In this document: positions 2,673 through 36,758 of the stretch, piece by piece
How the letters are laid out: each line of letters starts with the position of its first letter
Position numbering within the stretch: the first letter of the stretch is position 1
Virus record (IMG/VR): IMGVR_UViG_3300027719_000014
Length of the DNA: 39,455 nucleotides
DNA from: a virus
Direction: 5' to 3' (one strand)
Translations under genes and position numbers: made by a program
The notes under the pieces: generated by a model
Database searches by the model: none
What the model saw: the letters and a program-made list of their open reading frames with translations, nothing else
What the model was told of the DNA's origin: nothing

Positions 2673-2897
2673 ATGGCAAAAACAAAGAAAGCACCACTAT
2701 GCCCGGTCGATGGAGCAGAATTATGTGAGAGCGCAAAGCGAGAGGCGCTTGAGTTGATCGGTGATCCTATCATCGTAAAAGGCAAAGATGCGCTGCTGGC
2801 CGACATCCTTGAGGACATCGTAGACATGCTTTATACCGGCGTGGATCTGACGCGCGCCAACAATGCGCTGTCAAAAATCAGGACGCTGCGAGAATGA
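2673..2897 (+). CDS. Hypothetical protein (74 aa)
   Basis: AAGGAGA RBS; ATGA overlap with the downstream methyltransferase gene. Confidence 0.65.
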   Translation: MAKTKKAPLCPVDGAELCESAKREALELIGDPIIVKGKDALLADILEDIVDMLYTGVDLTRANNALSKIRTLRE

Positions 2898-3613
2898 CCT
2901 GCCCCTGGTGCGCCTCAACTGATACTGCGTTCTATTCCGACGTTATCACCGCCCCGTACTTCCCCGTTGACATCCACGGAGAGTTTATAAACTGCGCCAC
3001 GGTTACGCGCTACGAGAAATGCGCCGGCTGCGGACTAGTATTCCAGCCAGACCGCAAGCCTGATGCCTGGTATGACTGGTTCTATTCCAGCGGAACATAC
3101 CGAGCGACGCTGGGCATCAGTCAGGAAGTAATGGACGCCGACGAATATAAGCGCGCGCTTGATCTGGTTCCGGTTGTCATGCGGCACGTAGACGAATCGA
3201 ATATAAAAAAGCATCTTGATATTGGTGCATCGCGCGGGCTATTGCTGAAATACCTGAAACGTGAATTAAGATGCTTATCCAAAGGTTCCGACCCGTACAC
3301 CGATTACAGCCAGGCTGAATATGACGAATTCGACACGCCCGATCTTGTATCAGCTATCCACGTTTTAGAGCATGTAACGCACCCGCGCGATGAACTGCAA
3401 AAGTGGGCTGAACTCACAAGCCGGTATCTGCTTATTGAGGTCCCGGGCGAGAAGTGCAAGGGCGGCCCGCTTCGCTTTGCTCACCTATGGTATTTTCCTC
3501 CAGAGTTGTTGCGCGCAGAAATTGAACGGCTTGGCTTCAAGATTGTTGCCAGCGAAACAGAACCAGACACGAGGATACTTGCGGAAAAATTGGGTATTGA
3601 CACGCAGCCATAA
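2894..3613 (+). CDS. Class I SAM-dependent methyltransferase with N-terminal Cys4 zinc ribbon
   Basis: CPWC...CAGC zinc ribbon; motif I HLDIGASRGLL; SAIHVLEHVTHP motif typical of Methyltransf_23/C- or O-methyltransferases of sugar pathways. There are no DNA-MTase (D/N/S)PP(Y/F) or PC motifs. Confidence 0.7.
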   Translation: MTCPWCASTDTAFYSDVITAPYFPVDIHGEFINCATVTRYEKCAGCGLVFQPDRKPDAWYDWFYSSGTYRATLGISQEVMDADEYKRALDLVPVVMRHVDESNIKKHLDIGASRGLLLKYLKRELRCLSKGSDPYTDYSQAEYDEFDTPDLVSAIHVLEHVTHPRDELQKWAELTSRYLLIEVPGEKCKGGPLRFAHLWYFPPELLRAEIERLGFKIVASETEPDTRILAEKLGIDTQP

Positions 3614-3616
3614 AAG

Positions 3617-3625
3617 TGCTAATAT
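3617..3625 (+). promoter_or_regulatory. Candidate extended -10 promoter (TGcTAATAT)
   Basis: TGn + TAATAT immediately after the methyltransferase stop codon, at the start of a 190-nt non-coding gap. Confidence 0.3.
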
Positions 3626-3747
3626 GATTTAGAGCATGCGTTCATAGAATGCGTGTTCACACAATTTATGTGTCAGGATAAGCGCAGAGGCCGAAAGGCG
3701 CGCTAAAAGGGCACGAAGTAAATCTAATACACCAAAGGCTATGTAAA
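3626..3747 (+). ncRNA. Candidate structured leader / small RNA upstream of the capsid gene
   Basis: No ORF. GNRA-capped bulged hairpin at 3681-3704 (AGCGC-agag-GCC-GAAA-GGC-GCGCT). ACACC at 3729-3733 can pair with the terminator 5' arm (GGTGT 3750-3754). The region ends in the 3748-3780 terminator. Confidence 0.3.
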
Positions 3748-3780
3748 GCGGTGTGAGAGTAAATCTCACACCGCTTTTTT
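3748..3780 (+). terminator. Rho-independent terminator (11-bp stem, 5-nt loop, T6 tail)
   Basis: gcggtgtgaga-gtaaa-tctcacaccgc followed by tttttt. It lies only 23 nt upstream of the capsid-gene ATG. Confidence 0.8.
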
Positions 3781-3803
3781 GTTGCCTTAACCACGAGGTG
3801 AAC

Positions 3804-5552
3804 ATGGAAGATGAACAACTGGCATTTTATGGTGGAGCGGTAAAGGCACTCGGTGACGGCAAAGTCGGCGGGTATCTCGTCCGTTTCGGTGACCCAAAAG
3901 ACACCGATCTTGAGGGGGATTTCTTCTCGAAAGAAACTGATCTCGGGGTCTCGGATGCGGCAACCCTGCCAGTCTATTACCAGCACGGCCATGACGGACA
4001 AATGAAAGCGCGCCGGATTGGTAGAACCACCTGCAAGTATGATGATGTCGGTCTGTGGGCTGAAGCTCAACTCGAATTACGAGACGAATACGAGCAGATG
4101 ATTTATCAACTCGCAGCCGACGGGAAATTAGGCTGGTCGTCTGGCGCGGCTGGTCACCTGGTAGAGCGCGAGCAGGTAGGCAAGGCGTACCACATCAAAA
4201 CGTGGGTTATCGCAGAAGCCAGCCTGACGCCCACCCCGGCCGAACCGCGCAATAGCGCCGTACCTATCAAATCACTTTATGAAAATACCGCACAAACCGT
4301 CAGCGAAGCAGAGGCCGTGGAACCGGCGCAGAGCGACGAGCAACCGGCGGATAAACCAACCAACCAAAGCAAGGAGAACACAATGGATATTACCGAAGAG
4401 AAACTCAAGGAAATTGTTGACGGTGCGGTCACTAAGTCGCTTGATGAATTCAAGAAAACCCTACCCGCCCCTGACACCAGCGGCGTATCGGTCATTCACG
4501 ACGAAGCCGATACCCCGTTCAAAAGCGCAGGTGAGCAGTTCCTGGCTGTCAAAAAGGCAACCCTATCAATGGGCCAGACCATGCACCCGCGCCTGAAAGC
4601 GTTGAACGCGAAGGCCACCGGAGCTACTGAAGGCGTGCCGAGCGAAGGCGGGTACCTGCTCGACCCTACCATCAGCGCGGAAGTTATCAAGCCGATTCAC
4701 GAAACCGGCGTTTTCACCCAGTATGCCCGCAAGCTGCCGGTTGGCAACAACAGCAATTCAGGCTGGATCAACGGTGTGGATGAAACCAGTCGCGCGACCG
4801 GCTCGCGCTGGGGTGGCATTCGTGGTTATCGCCTGGCTGAAGGCGCTGCCATCACCGCAAGCAAGCCGCAGTTCAAGCGCATCAACTGGGAACTGAAAAA
4901 GTACGCCATTCTGTGCTACGCAACCGAAGAACTCATGCAGGACGCGGCCATGTTCAACGAAGTTCTGCGCGTCGGTTCAATGGAAGAAATCAATTTCATG
5001 GCGAACGACGACCTGGTGAACGGCACCGGAATCGGTGGCCCGCTGGGCGTGCTGAACAGCCCCGCTCGTATCTTTGTGGCCCGCGATACCGCCAGCAAGG
5101 TTCTGCACGTTGATCTCGTCACCATGTGGCAGCGTATGCTTCCTCGCTTCCGCAGCAACGCCGTCTGGTTCATCAACTCGGAAGTTGAGCCGCAACTGGA
5201 TCAGATTTACTTCACCGGCACGACCAGCGTTCTCTCGCCGTACGTAACCTACACCCCCGAAGGCGTGATGAAGATCAAGGGCCGCCCGGTTGTGGTGACT
5301 GAATTCAACCCGGCCCTGAACGCCGCTGGCGACATCCTGCTGGCCGACTTCAGCCAGTACCTGTACTGGGATAAGACCGCTCAGGCTGCCACCTCTATGC
5401 ACGTAGCTTTCACCACCGACGAGCAGGCGTTCCGCATTACATATCGCTGCGACGGCCAGACCGTTGACTCATCGCCCATCACCCCCTACAAGGGCACCAA
5501 CACCCAGTCGGCTTTCGTTACGCTCGGAGCTGCCACCACCGCGGCCGCGTAA
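3804..5552 (+). CDS. Prohead serine protease (HK97 gp4 / S78-like) fused in frame to HK97-fold major capsid protein
   Basis: GAGGTG RBS 3 nt upstream of the ATG at 3804. The N-terminal domain has YYQHGHD and GWSSGAAG (His/Ser) motifs and ends ASLTPTPAEPRN. An acidic/coiled linker follows. The C-terminal about 390 aa (GGYLLDP...) is typical of HK97-family capsid proteins. There is an internal in-frame AAGGAG-N6-ATG at 4371-4385. Confidence 0.8.
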   Translation: MEDEQLAFYGGAVKALGDGKVGGYLVRFGDPKDTDLEGDFFSKETDLGVSDAATLPVYYQHGHDGQMKARRIGRTTCKYDDVGLWAEAQLELRDEYEQMIYQLAADGKLGWSSGAAGHLVEREQVGKAYHIKTWVIAEASLTPTPAEPRNSAVPIKSLYENTAQTVSEAEAVEPAQSDEQPADKPTNQSKENTMDITEEKLKEIVDGAVTKSLDEFKKTLPAPDTSGVSVIHDEADTPFKSAGEQFLAVKKATLSMGQTMHPRLKALNAKATGATEGVPSEGGYLLDPTISAEVIKPIHETGVFTQYARKLPVGNNSNSGWINGVDETSRATGSRWGGIRGYRLAEGAAITASKPQFKRINWELKKYAILCYATEELMQDAAMFNEVLRVGSMEEINFMANDDLVNGTGIGGPLGVLNSPARIFVARDTASKVLHVDLVTMWQRMLPRFRSNAVWFINSEVEPQLDQIYFTGTTSVLSPYVTYTPEGVMKIKGRPVVVTEFNPALNAAGDILLADFSQYLYWDKTAQAATSMHVAFTTDEQAFRITYRCDGQTVDSSPITPYKGTNTQSAFVTLGAATTAAA

Positions 5553-5619
5553 CAGTGACTAACAGGCAAGCCCCGGTCAAGGCAATCGGCCGGGGCATAG
5601 ACACAGAAAGGAATACACC

Positions 5620-6120
5620 ATGATCGGAAGATTTGGACAGATCAACCAACTCGTACCAGTGCTGGCCCCGGTTGACACCGCGGCTACTGCCATCTGGACC
5701 AACCCCGTGCGAATGCGCGGTATTCATCGCGGAACCTTCGGGGTGCAGTTTGGAGTTATCACCGCAGCTTCGGCTGATCAGGCCGTCACCGTGACGCTGT
5801 ACGCGGCTACGAGCGCGGCCACCACGGGCGCTACTGCAATCGCTGGTAAATATCGTCTGAGCGCGGCCGTCGGAGACACCGAAGCCCCCGGCGCTATTAC
5901 AGCCTTTACGTCTGCCGGTATCAGCATCGCCACGACAGACGACGGCAAGCTGCTGCTCATTGATGTTGACCCGGCTCTCATGGCCGCGGTTTCCGATGGA
6001 CAGTATGCTCTCGTGAAGATCACCCCTGATGCCGGTGGAACCGTAACCCTGGTGAGCGCGTTCTTCGAGGGCGAACCGCGCTACGCGCAGAATAGCCCGC
6101 TGGCTACTCACGCGACCTAA
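5620..6120 (+). CDS. Hypothetical head-module protein, Ala/Thr-rich (decoration-protein candidate)
   Basis: AAAGGA RBS; lies immediately after the capsid gene; 166 aa, beta-rich; function not recognisable. Confidence 0.65.
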   Translation: MIGRFGQINQLVPVLAPVDTAATAIWTNPVRMRGIHRGTFGVQFGVITAASADQAVTVTLYAATSAATTGATAIAGKYRLSAAVGDTEAPGAITAFTSAGISIATTDDGKLLLIDVDPALMAAVSDGQYALVKITPDAGGTVTLVSAFFEGEPRYAQNSPLATHAT

Positions 6121-6163
6121 TAAAGTTGGTTATGGCGGCTTCTCTCCCCGCCTTTACCCGATG

Positions 6164-6193
6164 CCGGGGCGATGACTCAAAAGATCGCCCCGG
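6164..6193 (+). promoter_or_regulatory. Stable 10-bp hairpin (ccggggcgat...atcgccccgg), preceded by a GGCGG/CCGCC-TTT hairpin at 6134-6155
   Basis: Perfect inverted repeat in the gap after the head genes. No strong U-tract, so it may be an attenuator or an mRNA-stabilising element. Confidence 0.4.
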
Positions 6194-6236
6194 ATCAAAA
6201 ACGGAGAGAACAACCAAACACTTTTGGAGAGAGTGA

Positions 6237-7334
6237 ATGAAAAAACTTGCAATTGTAGGATCTGGATTACTGACACGGGAACTTGCCCCGTTTGGCGATA
6301 ACCAATTCGACATCTGGGTATTCAACGAAGCCCCCATGAGTCCCTGGTGTAAACGCTGGACAGCCTCATTTCAACTACATAACTCTGACATCTACGCGGG
6401 GCCTAATCTCAAACAGGCTGAGTACTGGAAATGGTTGCAGGCCAAACACGGCAAGCCGGTCTACATGCAGGAATATGACGAGCGTGTACCGGATTGTGTT
6501 GTTTATCCGGTAGAAGCGATCCTACAACTTACAGGAAAGCGATATCTCGGGATGTCACCGTGCTTTGCTGTCGCTCTGGCATTGCTGCAAGGCTACGAAC
6601 ACATCGAGATTTACGGGATTGAACTCTCGTCAACAGAATACCAGTTCGGCGCTGACAGTTGGCGGTTTTGGATCGGGTATGCAATCGGTAGATTGGGCGC
6701 TGATCATGTAATCATCAAATCGGGCCAACACTTATTCGAGACGGCGCTTTATGGCTACGATGGCGCGGCGCAATTAGACCATAAGTACTTCGAGGATCGC
6801 GCGCGCTACCTGGATAACTCATGGCTTGCAAAGGATAAAGTGTGCCGCAACTTATTCAAAAACATTGAGCGCCTGATTGAGAAGTATGAAGCCGAAAAAC
6901 TGCCAGAACAGATACAGATTTACCAGGACGCGGTATTCGAGTTGGGGCAGTTAGCTGGCGCACTTGGCGAGGCAGAGAAATACTGCGATACCAACGGCTC
7001 CAATGCCGACCGCAACGAATATGAGCAATCCGCCGCGAAGATCCGCACAGAAGGCCAGGCCAAACAGGTCGAGATGGAGCGTTACGCCGGTAAGTGCGAA
7101 TACGTTTGGAATGCCTGGCGGCAGTCAAAAAGTAATCCGGCGTTCCGCCAACAGGCTCAGTCACAGTTGCTCAACATGATCGTATCAATGGCGAAATCAG
7201 CGCAGGAAGCCGGTATATGTCACGGAGTTTATACCGAGAATGTTGGATACATGCAGAAGCATGACGAAATGGTACAGGCGAACGGCGGATACATGGCGCA
7301 GCATCCGATACCTTACCCGGAGATGGTAAAATGA
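6237..7334 (+). CDS. Putative glycosyltransferase-like protein (DUF115/MptE/Maf- or GT42 CstII-like Rossmann N-domain + alpha-helical C-domain)
   Basis: GGAGAG RBS. N-terminus KLAIVGSGLL...FDIWVFNEAP and later GMSPCFAVALALLQGYEHIEIYGIEL match the pattern of Maf/DUF115 and CstII-type sugar transferases (xxIxGxGxS...D-hh-xxN...GxSxxxxAhxhAxxhGxxxIxhxGxD). The assignment rests on motifs only. Confidence 0.4.
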   Translation: MKKLAIVGSGLLTRELAPFGDNQFDIWVFNEAPMSPWCKRWTASFQLHNSDIYAGPNLKQAEYWKWLQAKHGKPVYMQEYDERVPDCVVYPVEAILQLTGKRYLGMSPCFAVALALLQGYEHIEIYGIELSSTEYQFGADSWRFWIGYAIGRLGADHVIIKSGQHLFETALYGYDGAAQLDHKYFEDRARYLDNSWLAKDKVCRNLFKNIERLIEKYEAEKLPEQIQIYQDAVFELGQLAGALGEAEKYCDTNGSNADRNEYEQSAAKIRTEGQAKQVEMERYAGKCEYVWNAWRQSKSNPAFRQQAQSQLLNMIVSMAKSAQEAGICHGVYTENVGYMQKHDEMVQANGGYMAQHPIPYPEMVK

Positions 7335-7948
7335 CTATTACGAATGGCTATGGCGACCTAAACACATTTATCGATCGGGCAGTGATGACAGACGCGCCTC
7401 CAACTGATTCGGCCAGAGACGCGGTTATTGAGGCAATCATCCAGGCTGTTAGCCGTCAGATCGACTCCTATTGTTTTCGCAGGTTCTTCGTAAATTCGGC
7501 CGATGAGGTGCGATACTTCACGCCTGAAAATTACAGTCTCGTTTTTACAGACGACATTCAATCCATCACCACGCTGAAAACAGACGAGGACGCCGACGGC
7601 ACCTATGAGGTGACATGGGCCGCAACCGATTACAGGACATTCCCATTCAACCGCGTTGTAAATTATTCACCGATTACATACATCAAGCTGAAGCCGAACG
7701 GGAATTACGTATTCCCGATGGTAGAACAATCCACGGAGATTACCGGAAAATTTGGTTATTGCACCCTGGCAAACGTACCAGACCAGATCAAAGAAGCCTG
7801 CTACATCCAGGCTAACCGCATTTATGCTCGTCAGAAATCACCGTTCGGGATTGTTGGATCGGCTGAACTTGGAACGTTGCAAGCAATCTCAAAGCTCGAT
7901 GCAGATGTGATGGAAATGATCAGGCCGTTCAGAAAGCTGGTGGTCTGA
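7331..7948 (+). CDS. Head-tail connector / adaptor protein (gp6-like)
   Basis: ATGA overlap. The N-terminus (YGDLNTFIDRAVM...AVIEAIIQAVSRQIDSYCFRRF) is the typical signature of phage head-tail adaptor proteins. Synteny agrees. Confidence 0.6.
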   Translation: MTITNGYGDLNTFIDRAVMTDAPPTDSARDAVIEAIIQAVSRQIDSYCFRRFFVNSADEVRYFTPENYSLVFTDDIQSITTLKTDEDADGTYEVTWAATDYRTFPFNRVVNYSPITYIKLKPNGNYVFPMVEQSTEITGKFGYCTLANVPDQIKEACYIQANRIYARQKSPFGIVGSAELGTLQAISKLDADVMEMIRPFRKLVV

Positions 7949-17469: not shown

Positions 17470-17702
17470 CAATCCGAGACGAACTTGACGAACTATTCAC
17501 AGAACTCGACAAAGAAATTCTCCCGCAGTTAGAAGACGGCGACATTACCCGCAAGATGTTGGCCGAGGAAAAGCGCGTGTCTGAAAATACAATCAAGCGT
17601 ATCATGAAAAAATTGGTAAAGTCAGGCGAATGGGTTGAGGTAATAAAGCGGGATAAATACGGCCCGGTTACCACTTACAGAAAGGCGGTGCATGATGAAT
17701 AA
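17466..17702 (+). CDS. Small winged-helix/HTH DNA-binding protein candidate
   Basis: 78 aa. ITRKMLAEEKRVSENTIKRIMKKLVKSGEWVEV is a helix-turn-helix plus wing pattern. ATGA overlap with the upstream gene. Confidence 0.5.
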   Translation: MTIRDELDELFTELDKEILPQLEDGDITRKMLAEEKRVSENTIKRIMKKLVKSGEWVEVIKRDKYGPVTTYRKAVHDE

Positions 17703-19038
17703 AAAGGCGATGCTTGTGACAGGAGTGCTGGGGGGAGGAGGGGGAGAAAATGTTATTTTATTTGATCAGTTTACCGGAGTAGATGATACTAGCCTTGACG
17801 CCCATATAATATTACCAATTAATAAAGTATCTGCGTCATGGGTGGAAGCAAACGGTGATCTAAAGATTAAATCTGGATATTTGACAGGCGTTTCATCAAC
17901 AACTTCCCCATATAGTATTGCAACCATAGACGCCGGAAGAGTAAATTATAAAATACAAGCCAAAATAAATTTAGCGGCTACTGTTTCAAATGAAAACGCC
18001 GGGGTTATTGTCAGATACGCAACCGGGCCAACGTTTTATTTGATCTGTTTTAATACTGGGTATTTTAGAATTTACGAATATGCTGCTGGGCACACAGAAA
18101 GAGCGGTTGTTGCTCATACATTTTCAAACAATACAGATTATTTACTTACAGTGATTGTCTCTGATAATAAAATAATTGCAACCGTAGACGGAGTTTCTTT
18201 GGTGTATGCCAATGCTACCAGAAACCCGTCATCAACAATTGTTGGTGCGAGAATTCAGGTATTATCACAAAAGGAAGATGACTTCAAAGTCATCTACCCC
18301 TTTCGCATGAACCAACCAATAGCTCTTGGGGATGTTTATCTTATTTTAGGTCAGTCAAACGCCGAGGGAGTTGGAACAAACAATCAAGCATATACCGGAA
18401 CAGGGGCAGCTTATTTGTTTGCTAATAATTACGCAATCAGGCAAATGGCTGACCCAACAGACAGTAACAGCCAACAAGTAGATTCTGTGTCATCGGACGC
18501 CGATGCCGCTGGAAGCTATTGGCCTATACTTGCATCATATATATCGAATAACACAGGAAGGGTTGTAACGTTTATTCCATGCGCAAAAGGCGGTTCTACT
18601 ATATTTCAATGGCAACCAGGCGCTAACCATGAAGATAGAACAACATTGATTGGATCGGCAATTTATAGAGCTAAATTAGTAGCATCTCTTGGCGGTAATT
18701 TGAGAGGTGCATTATGGCATCAAGGAGAGGGAGATGCCGCAAATAGTATTTCTCAAGAGGATTATAATAATTATCTTGACATTGTAGCTGATACACTGCG
18801 CTCCGATCTTGGGATACCACTTGTTCCATGCAAATTACAAAACTGCACAGGTCGAGATGAAACAAATGTAAATGCAGCAATCGCTGAGGCGTGGGTCGAT
18901 AATGAAAATGTTTTACAGGGGCCTGATTTTACGGACATTACTCCTTCCGAAGATGGTTTACACTTCAAAACGGACGAAGAACAGGCCACTGCTGGATTAC
19001 GATGGTGGAATGAAATTAGTATTCACTTTTATTCATAA
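17692..19038 (+). CDS. LamG/ConA-like domain fused to SGNH/SASA-type carbohydrate O-acetylesterase
   Basis: The C-terminal half has LILGQSNAEG (GQSN catalytic Ser block), ALWHQGEGDA and EDGLHF (Asp/His block), typical of sialate-O-acetylesterase (SASA/CE6-like) domains. The N-terminal about 190 aa has a LamG-like pattern (GVIVRYATGPTFYLICF...). The gene is visibly more AT-rich than its neighbours. Confidence 0.65.
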   Translation: MMNKKAMLVTGVLGGGGGENVILFDQFTGVDDTSLDAHIILPINKVSASWVEANGDLKIKSGYLTGVSSTTSPYSIATIDAGRVNYKIQAKINLAATVSNENAGVIVRYATGPTFYLICFNTGYFRIYEYAAGHTERAVVAHTFSNNTDYLLTVIVSDNKIIATVDGVSLVYANATRNPSSTIVGARIQVLSQKEDDFKVIYPFRMNQPIALGDVYLILGQSNAEGVGTNNQAYTGTGAAYLFANNYAIRQMADPTDSNSQQVDSVSSDADAAGSYWPILASYISNNTGRVVTFIPCAKGGSTIFQWQPGANHEDRTTLIGSAIYRAKLVASLGGNLRGALWHQGEGDAANSISQEDYNNYLDIVADTLRSDLGIPLVPCKLQNCTGRDETNVNAAIAEAWVDNENVLQGPDFTDITPSEDGLHFKTDEEQATAGLRWWNEISIHFYS

Positions 19039-25295: not shown

Positions 25296-25420
25296 CAGAC
25301 AAATCCGCTGATCCCAGCATAGAACGATTTCCGGTCTATTTTGACGGAGCAGGCGACAAGGGAAACAAGTGGGATCAATTCGATTATGTAGTTTGGATTT
25401 CCAGGAAGGTGACGGCATGA
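25292..25420 (+). CDS. Possible small protein (42 aa)
   Basis: ATGA overlaps at both ends; RBS GGAGAAGGTGA; below the track cut-off. Confidence 0.4.
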   Translation: MTDKSADPSIERFPVYFDGAGDKGNKWDQFDYVVWISRKVTA

Positions 25421-25929
25421 TCAACGCCAAAATTGATTATAAGAAGAACGAGAAGTTTGACAACTTATACACACCAGAACGGGCGGTAAAGCCATTATTG
25501 AACTATGTACACACCGGTTTGAAAATTTGGGAATGCTGCGATCACACCGGCGATAGCAACATATCAAAAGTGTTACGAGATTACGGGTGCGAGGTTATTA
25601 CAAGTGACATTAGATCTGGCTTTGACTTCCTGACGGATACTCAAACGCAGGACTTTGACATTATCGTCACCAACCCGCCATATTCGCTCAAGGATAAATT
25701 TCTACAGCGATGCTATGAATACGGAAAACCGTTCGCGCTACTTTTGCCGCTGACCGCGCTTGAGGGTATTCAGCGGTCAAAGATGTTTCAGAAGTATGGA
25801 ATATCAGTTATCGTCTTGGATCGCCGTATAGACTTCACCGGTAAGAAAGCGTGCTGGTTCAATGTTTCATGGTTTACTCATGGAATAGTTGGAGATTATC
25901 AACTTTATTTTGAAGAGGTATTCGCATGA
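25417..25929 (+). CDS. DNA N6-adenine methyltransferase (small NPPY-type)
   Basis: IIVTNPPYS (motif IV) and IWECCDHTGDSNI (AdoMet-binding-like). The start is taken at the ATGA overlap (MINAKIDY...). Confidence 0.6.
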   Translation: MINAKIDYKKNEKFDNLYTPERAVKPLLNYVHTGLKIWECCDHTGDSNISKVLRDYGCEVITSDIRSGFDFLTDTQTQDFDIIVTNPPYSLKDKFLQRCYEYGKPFALLLPLTALEGIQRSKMFQKYGISVIVLDRRIDFTGKKACWFNVSWFTHGIVGDYQLYFEEVFA

Positions 25930-26774: not shown

Positions 26775-27710
26775 ATGACAGCAAAGCTAATGCAAGGTGA
26801 CTGCTTACAAGTTTTGAGGACGCTTGATGATAAATCAGTAAACTGTATCGTCACATCACCGCCATACTACGGACTACGCGATTATGGTGTAGCTGGCCAG
26901 ATCGGACTAGAACCTACACCCGATGAGTACACCGCGAAGCTCGTAGAGGTATTTCACGAGGCAAGGCGGGTACTGCGCTACACCGGTACACTCTGGTTAA
27001 ATTTGGGCGATAGTTATGCTGGTTCGTCTGGGTCAAAAAATGGCAATCTAAAGCCCAAAGACCTTATTGGCATTCCCTGGCGCGTGGCATTCGCATTACA
27101 GGCGGATGGTTTTTATCTGCGCTCTGACATTATTTGGGCGAAACCTAATCCAATGCCGGAAAGCGTAACCGACCGCCCTACAAAAAGCCATGAGTATATT
27201 TTCTTGCTGTCAAAATCGGAGCGGTATTACTACGACAACGAAGCGATAAAAGAGCCGTGCGTTTGGTCCTCAGTTGAACGTCTCGGACAGAATATCGAAA
27301 AACAAAATGGATCGTCGCGTGTTCCAGGTAAATCCAACGGGAATATGAAAGCCGTTTGTTCTGGCAAAGATTGGAATCCGTCAATGGCGGGCGGTGCGGT
27401 TGGAATAGAAAACCGAAAACATCTACCGTATCCGATGGCAAATAAGCGCGACGTATGGACTGTAACCACAAAGCCGTATAAAGAAGCACACTTTGCAACA
27501 TTTCCGCCAGATCTGATTGAGCCGTGTATTCTGGCAGGTTGTCCGGTTGGCGGAACCGTGCTCGACCCATTCAATGGGTCCGGAACGACGGGGGCAGTAT
27601 CCATCAAACATCACCGGAATTACATTGGGATTGAACTTAACGAAAAGTACATAAAGTTATCAGAACGAAGATTCGGCAAAGTACAGCCAACGCTAGTCGA
27701 GGTGGAATAA
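26775..27710 (+). CDS. DNA methyltransferase, N4-cytosine/N6-adenine beta class (N6_N4_Mtase family)
   Basis: IVTSPPYYGLRDYG (SPPY motif IV) is N-terminal and VLDPFNGSGTTG (motif I) is C-terminal, which is the beta-class order. Typical IIWAKPNPMPES block. Confidence 0.8.
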   Translation: MTAKLMQGDCLQVLRTLDDKSVNCIVTSPPYYGLRDYGVAGQIGLEPTPDEYTAKLVEVFHEARRVLRYTGTLWLNLGDSYAGSSGSKNGNLKPKDLIGIPWRVAFALQADGFYLRSDIIWAKPNPMPESVTDRPTKSHEYIFLLSKSERYYYDNEAIKEPCVWSSVERLGQNIEKQNGSSRVPGKSNGNMKAVCSGKDWNPSMAGGAVGIENRKHLPYPMANKRDVWTVTTKPYKEAHFATFPPDLIEPCILAGCPVGGTVLDPFNGSGTTGAVSIKHHRNYIGIELNEKYIKLSERRFGKVQPTLVEVE

Positions 27711-28568: not shown

Positions 28569-29405
28569 ATGGGCGAAAAAACTGGAATTGCATGGACAGA
28601 TCACAGCTTCAATCCGTGGGTTGGATGTACTAAAGTATCAGCCGGATGCGCGAATTGCTACGCAGAACGAGAAAACGCCCGTTTTGGGTGGAATAAGAAC
28701 GGTTGGGGCGATAACGCTCCACGCATCCGCACGAGTGAAAACAACTGGAAGCAGCCTATCAAATGGGCGAAGCAAGCGGTCAAGGATGGTGTTACCCGGC
28801 GCGTGTTCTGCGCGAGCCTGGCAGACGTGTTTGATCCGCTCGTACCGGCAGAGTGGCGCACCGATCTGTGGAGCCTGATGCTGGAGTGTGGCGAATGGCA
28901 TGGCGGCCTCGAATGGCTGATCCTGACAAAGCGGCCAGAGAACATATTCCAGATGTTGCCGCTGAATTGGCAAGCGGAACCGCCTGATTACGTGCGTATT
29001 GGCGTGACGGTTGAAAATAAATACTCGCTAAAGCGTGTAGATAAACTATTGTCAGTTTGGCAAGGAAAGAACTTTGTAAGCTACGAGCCAGCGCTTGCGC
29101 GTGTTGATTTTAGTTATCACCTAGACGGTTGCCCAGTAAGTGATAAGGTTTCAGATTTTGGTTCCAGCCACGACTATATTATGGTCCCTACAACCAATCA
29201 AATCGGCTGGATGATCTGTGGTTGCGAAAGCGGCCCAGGCGCTCGACCGATGAATCCTGATTGGGCGCGATCCGTTCTGGATAAGTGTATCGCCGCCGAT
29301 GTTCCTTTCCTGCTAAAACAAATGGTCATTGACGGTAAACTTGTACGAGAGCCAGAGCTTGACGGCAAACAGTGGTTACAATTTCCAAAGGAGAGCGTGA
29401 GATGA
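28569..29405 (+). CDS. Phage Gp37/Gp68 family protein (DUF5131)
   Basis: The hallmark N-terminus TGIAWTDHSFNPWVGCTKVSAGCANCYAE and the later CASLADVFD and GCESGPGARPM blocks. Confidence 0.8.
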   Translation: MGEKTGIAWTDHSFNPWVGCTKVSAGCANCYAERENARFGWNKNGWGDNAPRIRTSENNWKQPIKWAKQAVKDGVTRRVFCASLADVFDPLVPAEWRTDLWSLMLECGEWHGGLEWLILTKRPENIFQMLPLNWQAEPPDYVRIGVTVENKYSLKRVDKLLSVWQGKNFVSYEPALARVDFSYHLDGCPVSDKVSDFGSSHDYIMVPTTNQIGWMICGCESGPGARPMNPDWARSVLDKCIAADVPFLLKQMVIDGKLVREPELDGKQWLQFPKESVR

Positions 29406-34836: not shown

Positions 34837-35160
34837 ATGACTGATTTTGTTCTAACTCCTGAATTACTCGCGGCTATCGTCGGTATCGTATTGTCTCTTG
34901 CATTCTCGTACATCCCTAATCTGAATACGGCTTTTGCCGGGCTTACCGCCGAAGTCAAGCGCCTTGTTATGGCCGGGCTATTGCTTGCTGTGGCCGGAAT
35001 GGTAATGGCTCTCGGATGCTACGGGATCTTGTCGTCGGGGATTGCGTGCGACCAAGGCGGCGCTATCCAGCTCGTGTCTATTTTTATTTCAGCGATGATC
35101 GCCAACCAGGGCGCATACGCACTGACCCCTCAGACTCAAGCTGTAAAAGATGCGAAGTAA
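34837..35160 (+). CDS. Membrane protein with about 3 TM segments (holin-like candidate)
   Basis: GGAGGG RBS; hydrophobic stretches LLAAIVGIVLSLAFSYI, LVMAGLLLAVAGMVMALGCYGIL and IQLVSIFISAMIA; 107 aa. Confidence 0.5.
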   Translation: MTDFVLTPELLAAIVGIVLSLAFSYIPNLNTAFAGLTAEVKRLVMAGLLLAVAGMVMALGCYGILSSGIACDQGGAIQLVSIFISAMIANQGAYALTPQTQAVKDAK

Positions 35161-35163
35161 ACT

Positions 35164-35535
35164 ATGGCGGGCATATCAGAACGCTCCGCAGCAGAACGTG
35201 TAACAAATGCCGATTTAGCCCTTCTTTTGGGGGGGATTGACACGCGCCTCACAGTTATCGAAGGGACGACCGGCCGGCTTGACAAAGCTATCAACGGCAA
35301 CGGAAAGCCGGGCTTATTGGAAGATTACAGATGCTTACAGGTTGACTTCAATAATCACATCAAAGAGGCAAAAGATCAAAAGGAACGCGCAGACGCTGAT
35401 AAAAAGACCGCCATTGACAAAAGGGAGAAATTCTCTGCCAGGACTTGGGCGATTGTAATGGCGGTTATCGGCGCGTTCATCACGCAGACGGTCGGCCTCG
35501 TAATACTGTTTATCAGGACTGGTGCAATCAAGTGA
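35164..35535 (+). CDS. Coiled-coil protein with C-terminal TM anchor (XhlA-like / lysis-accessory candidate)
   Basis: N-terminal coiled region, central NGNGKPGLLED, C-terminal WAIVMAVIGAFITQTVGLVILFI. Confidence 0.45.
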   Translation: MAGISERSAAERVTNADLALLLGGIDTRLTVIEGTTGRLDKAINGNGKPGLLEDYRCLQVDFNNHIKEAKDQKERADADKKTAIDKREKFSARTWAIVMAVIGAFITQTVGLVILFIRTGAIK

Positions 35536-36758
35536 GCGAATCTATTACATGGACTAACTGCCAGGTAAGACTTGGCGAACTCAAAGAATGGGAAGGCAAC
35601 CCGGCCGAGATTGGCAAAGAAGCAGCCGGTCGCCTTGTTGAATCATTCAATGAGTTCGGGCAGGTCCAGGCGCTGGCGATCGATCCTGATAACCGGCTGA
35701 TAGATGGACACCAGCGATTATCCGTATGGCTGCATAAATTCGGCGCTGATATGCTCGTGGATTGCCGCCAGTCATCTCGTTTGCTTACCGACAAGGAACG
35801 CCAGAAGATAGCAGTATACCTGCGCTCCGCCGCGGTCGGTCGATACAATTGGGATATTATTGCAAATTGGGATACCGGCGATCTGAAGGAATGGGGATTT
35901 GATAGCCATACCCTGGATGATTGGAATACAGATGTTCGTGCGCTGTCGAATTTCTTGGAAAGTAGCAAGCCAGATCAGGCAGACGCAGAACCGCAAATTG
36001 ACCGCGCCGCTGAACTCAATGAGAAGTGGCAGGTAAAGACTGGCGACTTATGGCAGATAGGCGAACACCGGTTATTGTGTGGGGATTCGACTGTTTTGAG
36101 CGACGTTGAAAAATTAATATTCGGAAATAAAGTATTCGTATTTAGCGATCCCACTTATGGAATTGACGTTGTTTCTGGATCAAAGGTTGGTGGAGCCGCC
36201 TCCACCAAATTCGGCAAAGTTGGGGTGGAAAATTGGGTAGATTCACATGAGTATCCAGAGATTATCGGTGATGATAGCACGGATACGGCGCGTAATTTCT
36301 ATGCTGTTTGTACCTCATTGAGAATAACTGATTTTATTCTATGGGGCGGAAATTACTTCACTGATTTTCTTAGTCCGTCTCGTTGTTGGCTGGTGTGGGA
36401 TAAGCAAAACACTGGGAACTTCGCCGATGTTGAATTGGCGTGGACTTCATTCGATAAAAGCGCAAAGAAATACGAGTGGTTATGGAATGGGCTAAGCAGA
36501 GAAGGTAATAGGAAAGACGAGCTGACTAGCCGTGTTCATCCTACCCAAAAACCCGTTGGACTTACTCAAGAAATAATGAATGACTTTCCAGCCGATATTT
36601 ATTATGATGGCTTTCTCGGTAGCGGTTCTTTTATGGTTGCCGCTCACAATGTAGGCAAGAAGATGTATGGCATTGAAAAAAGCGTTGACTACTGCGCTGT
36701 CATACTCGAACGCATGGCGACTGCGTTTCCAGAATTAGAAATCACAAAGATACTGTGA
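35532..36758 (+). CDS. ParB-like nuclease domain fused to an N6_N4-family DNA methyltransferase
   Basis: GTGA overlap start. N-terminal ALAIDPDNRLIDGHQRL (ParB/Srx-like). C-terminal VFSDPTYG (DPPY-like), VHPTQKPVGL and DGFLGSGSFMVAAHNVGKKMYGIEKS (motif I). Confidence 0.75.
   Translation: MSESITWTNCQVRLGELKEWEGNPAEIGKEAAGRLVESFNEFGQVQALAIDPDNRLIDGHQRLSVWLHKFGADMLVDCRQSSRLLTDKERQKIAVYLRSAAVGRYNWDIIANWDTGDLKEWGFDSHTLDDWNTDVRALSNFLESSKPDQADAEPQIDRAAELNEKWQVKTGDLWQIGEHRLLCGDSTVLSDVEKLIFGNKVFVFSDPTYGIDVVSGSKVGGAASTKFGKVGVENWVDSHEYPEIIGDDSTDTARNFYAVCTSLRITDFILWGGNYFTDFLSPSRCWLVWDKQNTGNFADVELAWTSFDKSAKKYEWLWNGLSREGNRKDELTSRVHPTQKPVGLTQEIMNDFPADIYYDGFLGSGSFMVAAHNVGKKMYGIEKSVDYCAVILERMATAFPELEITKIL

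Follow-up and report, generated by a model that had tools for sequence, protein, structure and literature searches.

A core head-module gene related to GT42 transferases points to a possible virion glycosylation system in a group of uncultured phages

Introduction

Why should the capsid gene of a tailed phage be flanked by genes that look like sugar-modifying enzymes? The question is raised by IMG/VR virus record IMGVR_UViG_3300027719_000014, a metagenome-derived tailed-phage genome of about 39.5 kb; the whole stretch analysed (39,455 nucleotides, nt) is called the window below. Within its head module, whose genes all lie on the + strand, the major capsid gene (3804-5552) is followed by the gene of an Ala/Thr/Ser-rich protein of 166 amino acids (aa), here called p166 (5620-6120). 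Upstream lies the gene of a 239-aa class I S-adenosylmethionine (SAM) methyltransferase with a Zn-ribbon (2894-3613), and downstream that of a 365-aa protein (6237-7334), which we call GT42L. An earlier note on this DNA had seen in the two flanking genes a possible cassette for virion glycosylation and methylation.

To our knowledge, phage virion glycosylation has so far been demonstrated only for a few mycobacteriophages. We establish here the gene content of this head module, the fold and remote homology of GT42L, its conservation pattern and its synteny with glycan enzymes in related phages. Together they make it fairly probable that GT42L is the core enzyme of a sugar-modification system in the head module, which attaches sugar to head proteins and in which the methyltransferase serves for tailoring. 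We propose to regard the phage group concerned as large, uncultured and siphophage-like.

Results

GT42L is a core partner of the capsid and p166 genes

The four open reading frames (ORFs) on which the earlier note built its case, and every motif quoted for them, were found in the window. The methyltransferase ORF begins MTCPWCAS... and includes ...KCAGCG...; the capsid ORF ends in ...TNTQSAFVTLGAATTAAA; p166 includes TSAATTGATAIAG; and the 365-aa protein contains KLAIVGSG, FDIWVFNEAP and GMSPCFAVALALLQGYEHIEIYGIEL. Judging from comparison of their sequences, these are real genes rather than chance ORFs, since the 365-aa protein has 189 full-length homologues (E ≤ 1e-3) and is accompanied by the p166 and capsid genes across about 150 fetched loci. 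The same 365-aa protein is present on nine contigs (six of them of 20-50 kb) from several samples. The window DNA itself has no match among 50,697 deposited phage records.

Related loci were collected along two lines, 91 being fetched via GT42L and 60 new ones via a separate p166-based scan, and the window proteins were mapped onto all of them (L-numbers, e.g. L116, are labels of fetched relative loci). The gene order is either capsid-p166-GT42L-adaptor or capsid-p166-adaptor-GT42L, the head-tail adaptor being a conserved neighbour in the relatives too. p166 adjoins the capsid gene in about 80 of the 91 loci fetched via GT42L, and all the p166-based loci with enough downstream DNA carry GT42L. 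Because this order holds in the GT42L-fetched loci and, independently, in every adequate p166-fetched locus, GT42L belongs to the core of the module together with the capsid and p166 genes.

Start codons overlap the preceding stops at two places in the window: the methyltransferase gene starts at 2894, before the stop at 2897, and the head-tail adaptor gene (7331-7948; phrog_442, 1.3e-11), which marks the downstream edge of the head module, starts at 7331, before the GT42L stop at 7334. These overlaps fit co-translation with the structural genes.

The N-domain of GT42L has a fold of the GT42 and MptE/DUF115 type

GT42L matches nothing in Pfam, PHROG or NCBIfam, and in Pfam nothing even at E ≤ 10. 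In its full-length AlphaFold model (predicted local distance difference test, pLDDT, 90.9) an alpha/beta N-domain (residues 1-180; 6237-6782) is followed by a C-domain (residues 183-365; 6783-7334) with four long helices within residues 182-348 (182-215, 219-251, 259-295 and 301-348, all at high pLDDT). A structure search with the full-length model gave only unspecific helical bundles, and the N-domain (residues 1-182) was then modelled alone (pLDDT 90.2, predicted template modelling score 0.87). Its best Foldseek match in the PDB is 9c08_A (E 1.2e-3, probability 1.0, template modelling (TM) score 0.54), the Pasteurella multocida CMP-Neu5Ac--lipooligosaccharide alpha 2-3 sialyltransferase of family GT42 (CMP, cytidine monophosphate; Neu5Ac, N-acetylneuraminic acid); thiamine pyrophosphokinases and SteA come after it. 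In BFVD, the N-domain matches uncharacterised phage proteins with TM up to 0.80, the MptE-like A0A6J7XC21 (E 5.9e-4, TM 0.51) and the DUF115 protein A0A5B8IGA8 (E 2.2e-3, TM 0.55).

Sequence profiles point in the same direction. Two of 50 diverse family members match Pfam CST-I (PF06002; 6.6e-4), and the family profile run against the PDB puts CstII entries on top, through two collinear motifs. An hhalign comparison with a single CstII sequence was weak (43%) and was replaced by one with a GT42 alignment built here, which gave a probability of 71.5% over 124 columns and of 88% over the TSG...GYxxIxxxG(I/V)(D/E)...Y segment. The residues paired between the window protein and CstII are G8/G8, N30/N31, E31/Q32, S107/S132, G127/G152, E129/D154 and Y135/Y162. 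We take the CMP-sugar binding motifs of CstII to be G8-N9-G10, N31-Q32, T131-S132-G133, G152-x-D154, Y156 and Y162.

With the GT42 enzymes (CstII/Cst-I of Campylobacter and PmST3 of Pasteurella; PF06002), GT42L has in common a single Rossmann-like alpha/beta domain (a GT-A variant) and, as aligned by profile, a collinear set of motifs, in which strand 1 is followed by I-x-G-x-G and strand 2 by (C/F)-N-(Q/E); next come T/S-x-x-Y-M...A-L-G-Y-x-x-I-x-x-x-G-(I/V)-(D/E) and a conserved Tyr. The GT42 features that we did not find in GT42L are a significant family-model match, the lid, and counterparts of Tyr156 and His188. All sequences in the GT42 alignment have His188; the alignments stop at window residue 137, past which GT42L has no invariant His, its sole one being H48. 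The C-terminal part also differs, a four-helix bundle in GT42L against a membrane-association/oligomerisation tail in GT42, and GT42L is encoded by a phage, in a head module, where its acceptor would be a protein instead of a lipo-oligosaccharide.

The comparison with the Maf/DUF115 flagellin nonulosonic-acid transferases is of the same kind. They belong to the same fold superfamily, and there too a helical region flanks the catalytic domain; the chemistry proposed to be common to both is the O-linking of a sugar to Ser/Thr of a surface protein that is abundant and synthesised in the cytoplasm. Nevertheless, PF01973 (DUF115/MptE-like) matches neither the window protein (E ≤ 10) nor 50 close relatives, no entry described as Maf appears in the top 50 PDB structure matches and, unlike in the Maf context, family scans of the window found no flagellar genes. 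Since separate canonical DUF115 genes adjoin GT42L in some relatives, the two are distinct families.

The likeness that the earlier note had proposed for the N-domain is therefore borne out at the level of fold (9c08 on top, MptE-like and DUF115 matches in BFVD, CstII first among profile matches, hhalign 71-88%). Membership in Maf, DUF115 or GT42 is not: the sequence models of these families do not match, and an equivalent of His188 was not found. Likewise, the check by profile and structure that it had called for gave a GT42 sialyltransferase as top structural match and no Pfam, PHROG or NCBIfam family. From profiles and models, we conclude that GT42L is best placed as a new family in the GT42 / DUF115-MptE / pyrophosphokinase fold group, nearest to GT42 and outside GT42, DUF115 and Maf. 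Its N-domain is predicted to be the nucleotide-sugar binding and catalytic domain, and the C-domain is proposed to bind the acceptor or to serve oligomerisation.

Conservation is enzyme-like and the family is large

In the close family G8, R14, N30, E31, R40, Q46, H48, S131, E134 and Y135 are invariant; G127 is nearly so there, and invariant in the broad family. R14, R40, Q46 and H48 are invariant residues specific to the family. In the modelled secondary structure the invariant polar residues sit at strand ends, where Rossmann-like enzymes usually bind ligands. The N-domain (mean pairwise identity 47.5%) is about as conserved as the capsid protein, against 29% for the C-domain. The latter is absent from short family members, and these N-domain-only proteins are also located in head-tail modules.

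The N-domain profile retrieved 4071 clusters at 50% identity from a library of 1.84 billion proteins, 2440 of them at E ≤ 1e-10; the family is thus widespread in metagenomes. Some relatives have two GT42L copies (L006, L065, L079, L137). In L137 one of them precedes the capsid gene and has as its neighbour a 210-aa ORF which has no Pfam match and whose 'HIPKCGG' motif is reminiscent of sulfotransferases.

A protein search of deposited phages gave a single carrier of the family, Microcystis phage Mvi-Yong1342-1 (PP496355.1), which is the only cultured-phage handle on GT42L. The protein concerned, XAN61349.1 (11908-12711 in L092), was deposited as 'type 11 methyltransferase'; it has no methyltransferase motifs and matches the GT42L family profile at 3e-49. 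Its gene is placed ahead of the small terminase gene and does not adjoin the capsid gene. A scan of 185,579 species genomes for a host gave four contigs of metagenome-assembled genomes, labelled Binatia, Chloroflexia, Verrucomicrobiota and Pseudomonadota; this taxonomy is inconsistent, so that no host can be named.

Sugar-type genes adjoin GT42L in related head modules

One or more extra glycan-type enzymes are present in 48 of the 107 distinct related head modules, and in 15 of the 34 that are fully spanned. The slot between portal and capsid genes holds GT2 genes in L001, L017 and L033, and Methyltransf_24 also occurs there. Upstream of its capsid gene, L091 encodes a radical SAM/SPASM protein, a methyltransferase, a canonical MptE-like protein, a glycosyltransferase-like protein and a GT2; the MptE-like gene passes the PF01973 cut-off (35.9 bits vs 34.6), and homologues of it stand beside GT42L in several relatives. 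In the same slot, after the portal gene, L145 and L158-L160 carry a NeuA-type cytidylyltransferase gene (PF02348, 1.2e-25). In the PDB it scores best against CMP-N-acetylneuraminate synthetases (7e-35 to 2e-25), while CMP-Kdo synthetases (Kdo, 3-deoxy-D-manno-oct-2-ulosonic acid) reach only about 1e-10. Between this NeuA-bearing phage and L116, where GT42L is found together with MptE and GT2, the capsid protein is 98.7% and the adaptor 97.6% identical.

Further downstream, the slot between p166 and GT42L is filled by a GT2 and Methyltransf_24 pair in L049-L051, L062-L064 and L068, or by large fibre-like proteins. A canonical MptE-like gene, followed by GT2 genes, starts on the GT42L stop codon in L116, L117, L134, L149 and L152, and in L087 the overlap between the two is larger, again with GT2 genes behind. 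In other loci GT42L is followed by Methyltransf_24 and GT2 genes, which precede the tail-tube gene; in L113 and L130 they are separated from GT42L by no more than about 15 nt. We take this gene set (DUF115, CMP-nonulosonate synthetase, methyltransferases, GT2) to resemble that of flagellin glycosylation islands. The link to sugar chemistry, which had been suggested from two genes of the window, is much strengthened by the GT2, DUF115, methyltransferase, radical-SAM and NeuA-type genes in the head modules of the relatives.

The methyltransferase is an optional neighbour

The gene at 2894-3613 indeed encodes a class I SAM methyltransferase with an N-terminal Cys4 zinc ribbon, as had been read from its sequence. 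It passes the Pfam Methyltransf_23 cut-off (43.6 bits vs 27; E 3.3e-11), with the ribbon in about residues 1-50 and the methyltransferase domain in about residues 100-225. Among 38 aligned homologues, the ribbon cysteines (C3, C6, C43, C46), motif I (D109-x-G111...G115) and the HVLEH segment (H156, L158, E159, H160) are invariant or nearly so, and the acidic residue after strand 2 is present ('KGSDP'). Almost all of the 117 homologues fall within the same phage group.

That this architecture is typical of sugar methyltransferases holds in part. A PDB search with the family profile gave mostly generic methyltransferases, the best being the uncharacterised 3cc8 and 3dli. The sole match covering both ribbon and catalytic domain is the D-mycarose 3-C-methyltransferase 4rv9 (E 3e-9; query residues 6-231 vs 4rv9 residues 10-250), and TcaB9 comes next, at about 1e-3. 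Like TcaB9/MtmC (3ndi, 4rv9), the phage protein has an N-terminal Cys4 zinc module and then a class I SAM domain. However, it ends at residue 239, compared with about 416-426 aa for these enzymes; in Pfam it has no further domain, and no C-terminal sugar-nucleotide-binding one, and its nearest matches are generic Methyltransf_23 proteins. Given the absence of this third domain, the sugar-methyltransferase architecture is a lead, not membership.

Wherever present, the methyltransferase gene lies immediately upstream of the capsid gene, and it is found in 8 of the 33 loci spanning its slot, three of those 8 having been fetched via the methyltransferase itself. Hence the two enzymes do lie together in the head module of the window, but they are not co-inherited as a cassette, GT42L being core and the methyltransferase not. 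From this comparison of gene content, the latter is best seen as optional, one of several interchangeable accessory or tailoring genes.

p166 and the capsid protein as candidate acceptors

p166 has no Pfam, PDB, NCBIfam or named PHROG match, and a protein search of deposited phages found none that carries it. Its sequence suggests that it is probably beta-rich, and we consider it probably a surface or decoration protein of the head. Ser/Thr are conserved at positions 59, 64, 68, 81, 94 and 97. It evolves much faster than its neighbours: between L160 and L116 it is 70% identical, against 98.7% for the capsid protein and 97.6% for the adaptor. The divergence of the GT42L C-domain tracks that of p166 best (rho 0.60 vs 0.36 for capsid). 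As p166 is co-inherited with GT42L, rich in conserved Ser/Thr and fast-evolving, and as its divergence follows, weakly, that of the C-domain, it is the prime candidate for an acceptor or partner of GT42L.

Some relatives have a tandem double p166 (L017, L142). A small Ala/Ser-rich ORF upstream of the Microcystis-phage homologue of GT42L was considered as a p166 relative and set aside, the likeness being undetectable (E = 4). Between p166 and GT42L, several loci encode large Ala/Ser/Thr/Gly-rich proteins (L012 7793-9649, L075 7969-9603, L033 8932-9831, L040 1681-2580, L071 2212-2922) that have no family match and, in L075, show internal repeats. They are possible head fibres or additional decoration proteins and, likewise, potential acceptors.

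The capsid protein (582 aa from the ATG at 3804; the ORF opens at GTG 3753) matches Pfam Phage_capsid (1.1e-34), TIGR01554 (1.7e-49) and, weakly, Peptidase_S78 (3e-4). It consists of an S78-protease-like N-domain (21-163, weak) fused to an HK97-fold domain (282-563). Its C-terminal tail, ...GS.T.SPFV.L(G/T/A)(S/A)A(T/S), is kept across the 70 relatives inspected of 79 distinct tails; from its composition, this Ser/Thr/Ala-rich tail is the second candidate acceptor. In relatives the capsid protein ranges from about 390 to 785 aa, and in some its gene is split in two.

Other features of the window

A strong terminator-like hairpin lies at 3745-3777 on the + strand, between the methyltransferase and capsid genes and 27 nt upstream of the capsid start codon. 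A U-run comes directly after its perfect 14-bp stem; the free energy is -33.7 kcal/mol (z = -6.0), a value reached by none of 200 shuffled sequences. It could be a terminator or attenuator closing the upstream operon, or an mRNA-stabilising 5' element of the capsid mRNA. A promoter-like TTGACA-17-TAATAT is found at 3597-3625, inside the end of the methyltransferase gene. At its upstream side the window begins with the end part of the portal gene (14-727, + strand) and minor head genes after it, among them that of a 232-aa protein (724-1422) found throughout the lineage; this protein has no family match and a Cys-rich C-terminus (CITC...ECGGWRCDC).

Outside the head module, downstream of a GH25 lysozyme gene, 17692-19038 encodes a 448-aa protein with a SASA domain (sialate O-acetylesterase family, PF03629, 9e-26), which might be an esterase acting on the receptor. 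Should O-acetylated sialic-acid-like sugars be displayed by the host, the phage would have a CMP-nonulosonate pool at its disposal. A weak GtrA_DPMS_TM match (3.9e-4), considered as a sugar gene, likely comes from a hydrophobic 107-aa ORF (34837-35160) and is not counted as evidence; judged by sequence, this ORF and the next one (35164-35535, with a hydrophobic C-terminal stretch) resemble, at a guess, a pair of holins more closely than they do a sugar flippase. At 26775-27710, 35445-36758, 25369-25929 and 28569-29405 lie the genes of two N6_N4 DNA methylases and of a DUF5131 protein, and an ORF with weak likeness to EcoRI/Eco57I methylases. The phage thus has DNA-modification genes separate from the head-module methyltransferase.

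Discussion

What would such a gene do in a head module? We propose that the N-domain of GT42L, a distant relative of the GT42 and DUF115/Maf-type transferases, binds an activated sugar from the host pool, most likely a CMP-activated ulosonic acid (a sialic-acid-like sugar or Kdo), while the four-helix C-domain would hold the acceptor. Transfer of the sugar would take place in the cytoplasm, ahead of assembly or in its course, onto Ser/Thr of a head protein exposed at the surface, p166 being the first candidate and the capsid C-terminal tail the second. The upstream Zn-ribbon SAM methyltransferase would optionally methylate the sugar or its nucleotide precursor, and in relatives the slots would hold other tailoring or extending enzymes (GT2, Methyltransf_24, canonical DUF115, radical SAM, CMP-nonulosonate synthetase). 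A sugar-transfer role is the best reading of GT42L because of its fold, its enzyme-like conservation and its tight and repeated linkage to glycan enzymes, stop/start overlaps included. As the gene keeps its place within the late structural operon, next to those of p166 and the capsid protein, the acceptor is most likely a head protein, and the relationship to GT42, the DUF115 neighbours and the NeuA-type gene suggest the donor. Glycosylation, catalysis, donor, acceptor and methyltransferase substrate are thus what we infer from the genes.

Several points weigh against this interpretation. The case for a virion glycan is entirely one of genomic association, and the window protein matches no glycosyltransferase model. 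Its structural likeness to GT42 is moderate (TM about 0.5) and common to same-fold proteins that are not transferases, the thiamine and pterin pyrophosphokinases; the catalytic His188 and Tyr156 of GT42 have no aligned counterpart, Y156 falling in a gap. Family scans of the window proteins did not find a donor-synthesis gene, and the NeuA link comes from one phage lineage, whose contigs end about 600 nt past the adaptor, before the position of GT42L. The location of p166 in the virion is putative, and the correlated divergence of p166 and the C-domain, confounded as it is by their physical linkage, is weak because adjoining genes share their recombination history and the pairs are non-independent. 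Moreover, a strictly core gene would also suit a morphogenetic role.

That role is one of the explanations to be weighed against glycosylation of head proteins. GT42L could be a non-catalytic factor, such as a scaffold, an assembly chaperone of p166 or a head-completion protein, which keeps an old enzyme fold: it is a core gene among structural genes, its long helical C-domain is reminiscent of scaffolding proteins and no family model calls it an enzyme. Yet the most conserved residues are polar, at strand ends and aligned with the donor-binding motifs of GT42. It is the N-domain that is conserved like the capsid protein, with variation left to the helical part, N-domain-only versions exist, and in relatives the gene is translationally coupled to bona fide glycan enzymes, all of which makes a purely structural function improbable. 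We give a similarly small chance to a nucleotide-dependent enzyme of the same fold that is not a glycosyltransferase, pyrophosphokinase-like or of other group transfer, modifying a head protein or making a cofactor. Thiamine pyrophosphokinases and SteA score almost equal to the sialyltransferase in the structure search, the fold family includes the pterin pyrophosphokinase MptE, and the GT42 catalytic His lacks a counterpart. The sequence-level signals, however, point to GT42 and not to pyrophosphokinases, the genes in tight linkage encode glycosyltransferases, sugar-type methyltransferases and a CMP-sugar synthetase, and no thiamine or folate genes are found nearby.

Granting sugar chemistry, the acceptor might still lie elsewhere, the head location serving late expression: the target of a sugar or nucleotide enzyme could be phage DNA, a host envelope precursor or a small molecule. 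Fold and glycan neighbours indicate sugar chemistry, not its acceptor, and the sole family member in a deposited phage is encoded upstream of the small terminase. On the other hand, DNA-modifying transferases usually sit with replication genes; GT42L is strictly co-inherited with, and adjoins, the capsid and p166 genes and overlaps a structural gene (stop 7334 vs adaptor start 7331); its short relatives are likewise in head-tail modules, and a change of the host surface from a late operon would be of no obvious benefit. We therefore hold such a target to be unlikely, somewhat less so than the two preceding alternatives. The methyltransferase calls for a separate judgement, and the chance that it acts on a protein (capsid, p166 or host), a nucleic acid or a small molecule, with no role on sugar, is clearly higher, about one that a cautious reader would keep in mind as a minority possibility. 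Methyltransf_23 is a generic family, the best PDB matches (3cc8, 3dli) are uncharacterised, the sugar-binding C-domain of TcaB9/MtmC-type enzymes is absent, and methylation of phage tail proteins is described in passages of PMC13445384. Against this, the sole match over ribbon and catalytic domain is a sugar C-methyltransferase, the same slot in relatives has GT2, DUF115, NeuA-type and other sugar-type genes, and the protein matches no DNA-methyltransferase family, the window having N6_N4 DNA methylases of its own.

Sugar modification of head proteins by GT42L would echo what is described for mycobacteriophages. As passages in PMC12363180 and PMC11256854 state, phages Che8, Corndog and Myrna glycosylate capsid and tail-tube proteins with their own transferases; glycosylation shields the particles from antibodies (in a passage of PMC12363180), and the transferases of Che8-like phages are encoded close to the genome's 3' end (in one of PMC11256854). 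In both systems the sets of glycosyl- and methyltransferase genes vary among relatives. In the Che8-like phages, however, the transferases are accessory, whereas the GT42/DUF115-like gene described here is core in the head module. Full-text literature searches on DUF115 with phage, and on nonulosonic acids with bacteriophage virions, found nothing comparable. On this basis, we rate as new a different, unannotated enzyme family, its core and not accessory status, and a modular glycan island inside the head module.

These data suggest a second, apparently unrelated system of virion glycosylation in phages, and the phage group described here probably coats its heads with sugars. A wider generalisation, which we put forward tentatively and think rather doubtful, is that the GT42L family, with its more than 4000 clusters outside Pfam and PHROGs, seeds a modular 'glycan island' that decorates heads with CMP-derived acidic sugars, taken from or added to the host pool; 'sialylated' phage capsids would then be common in the environment. 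Should head glycosylation by GT42L hold true, it would add to protein glycosylation a new family of transferases, which may use sialic-acid-like sugars, and would provide a genomic marker to predict glycosylated phages in metagenomes. It would also offer parts for engineering glycan-coated capsids, and a means to test the effects of surface sugars on phage stability, adsorption, binding to mucus or particles and immune recognition.

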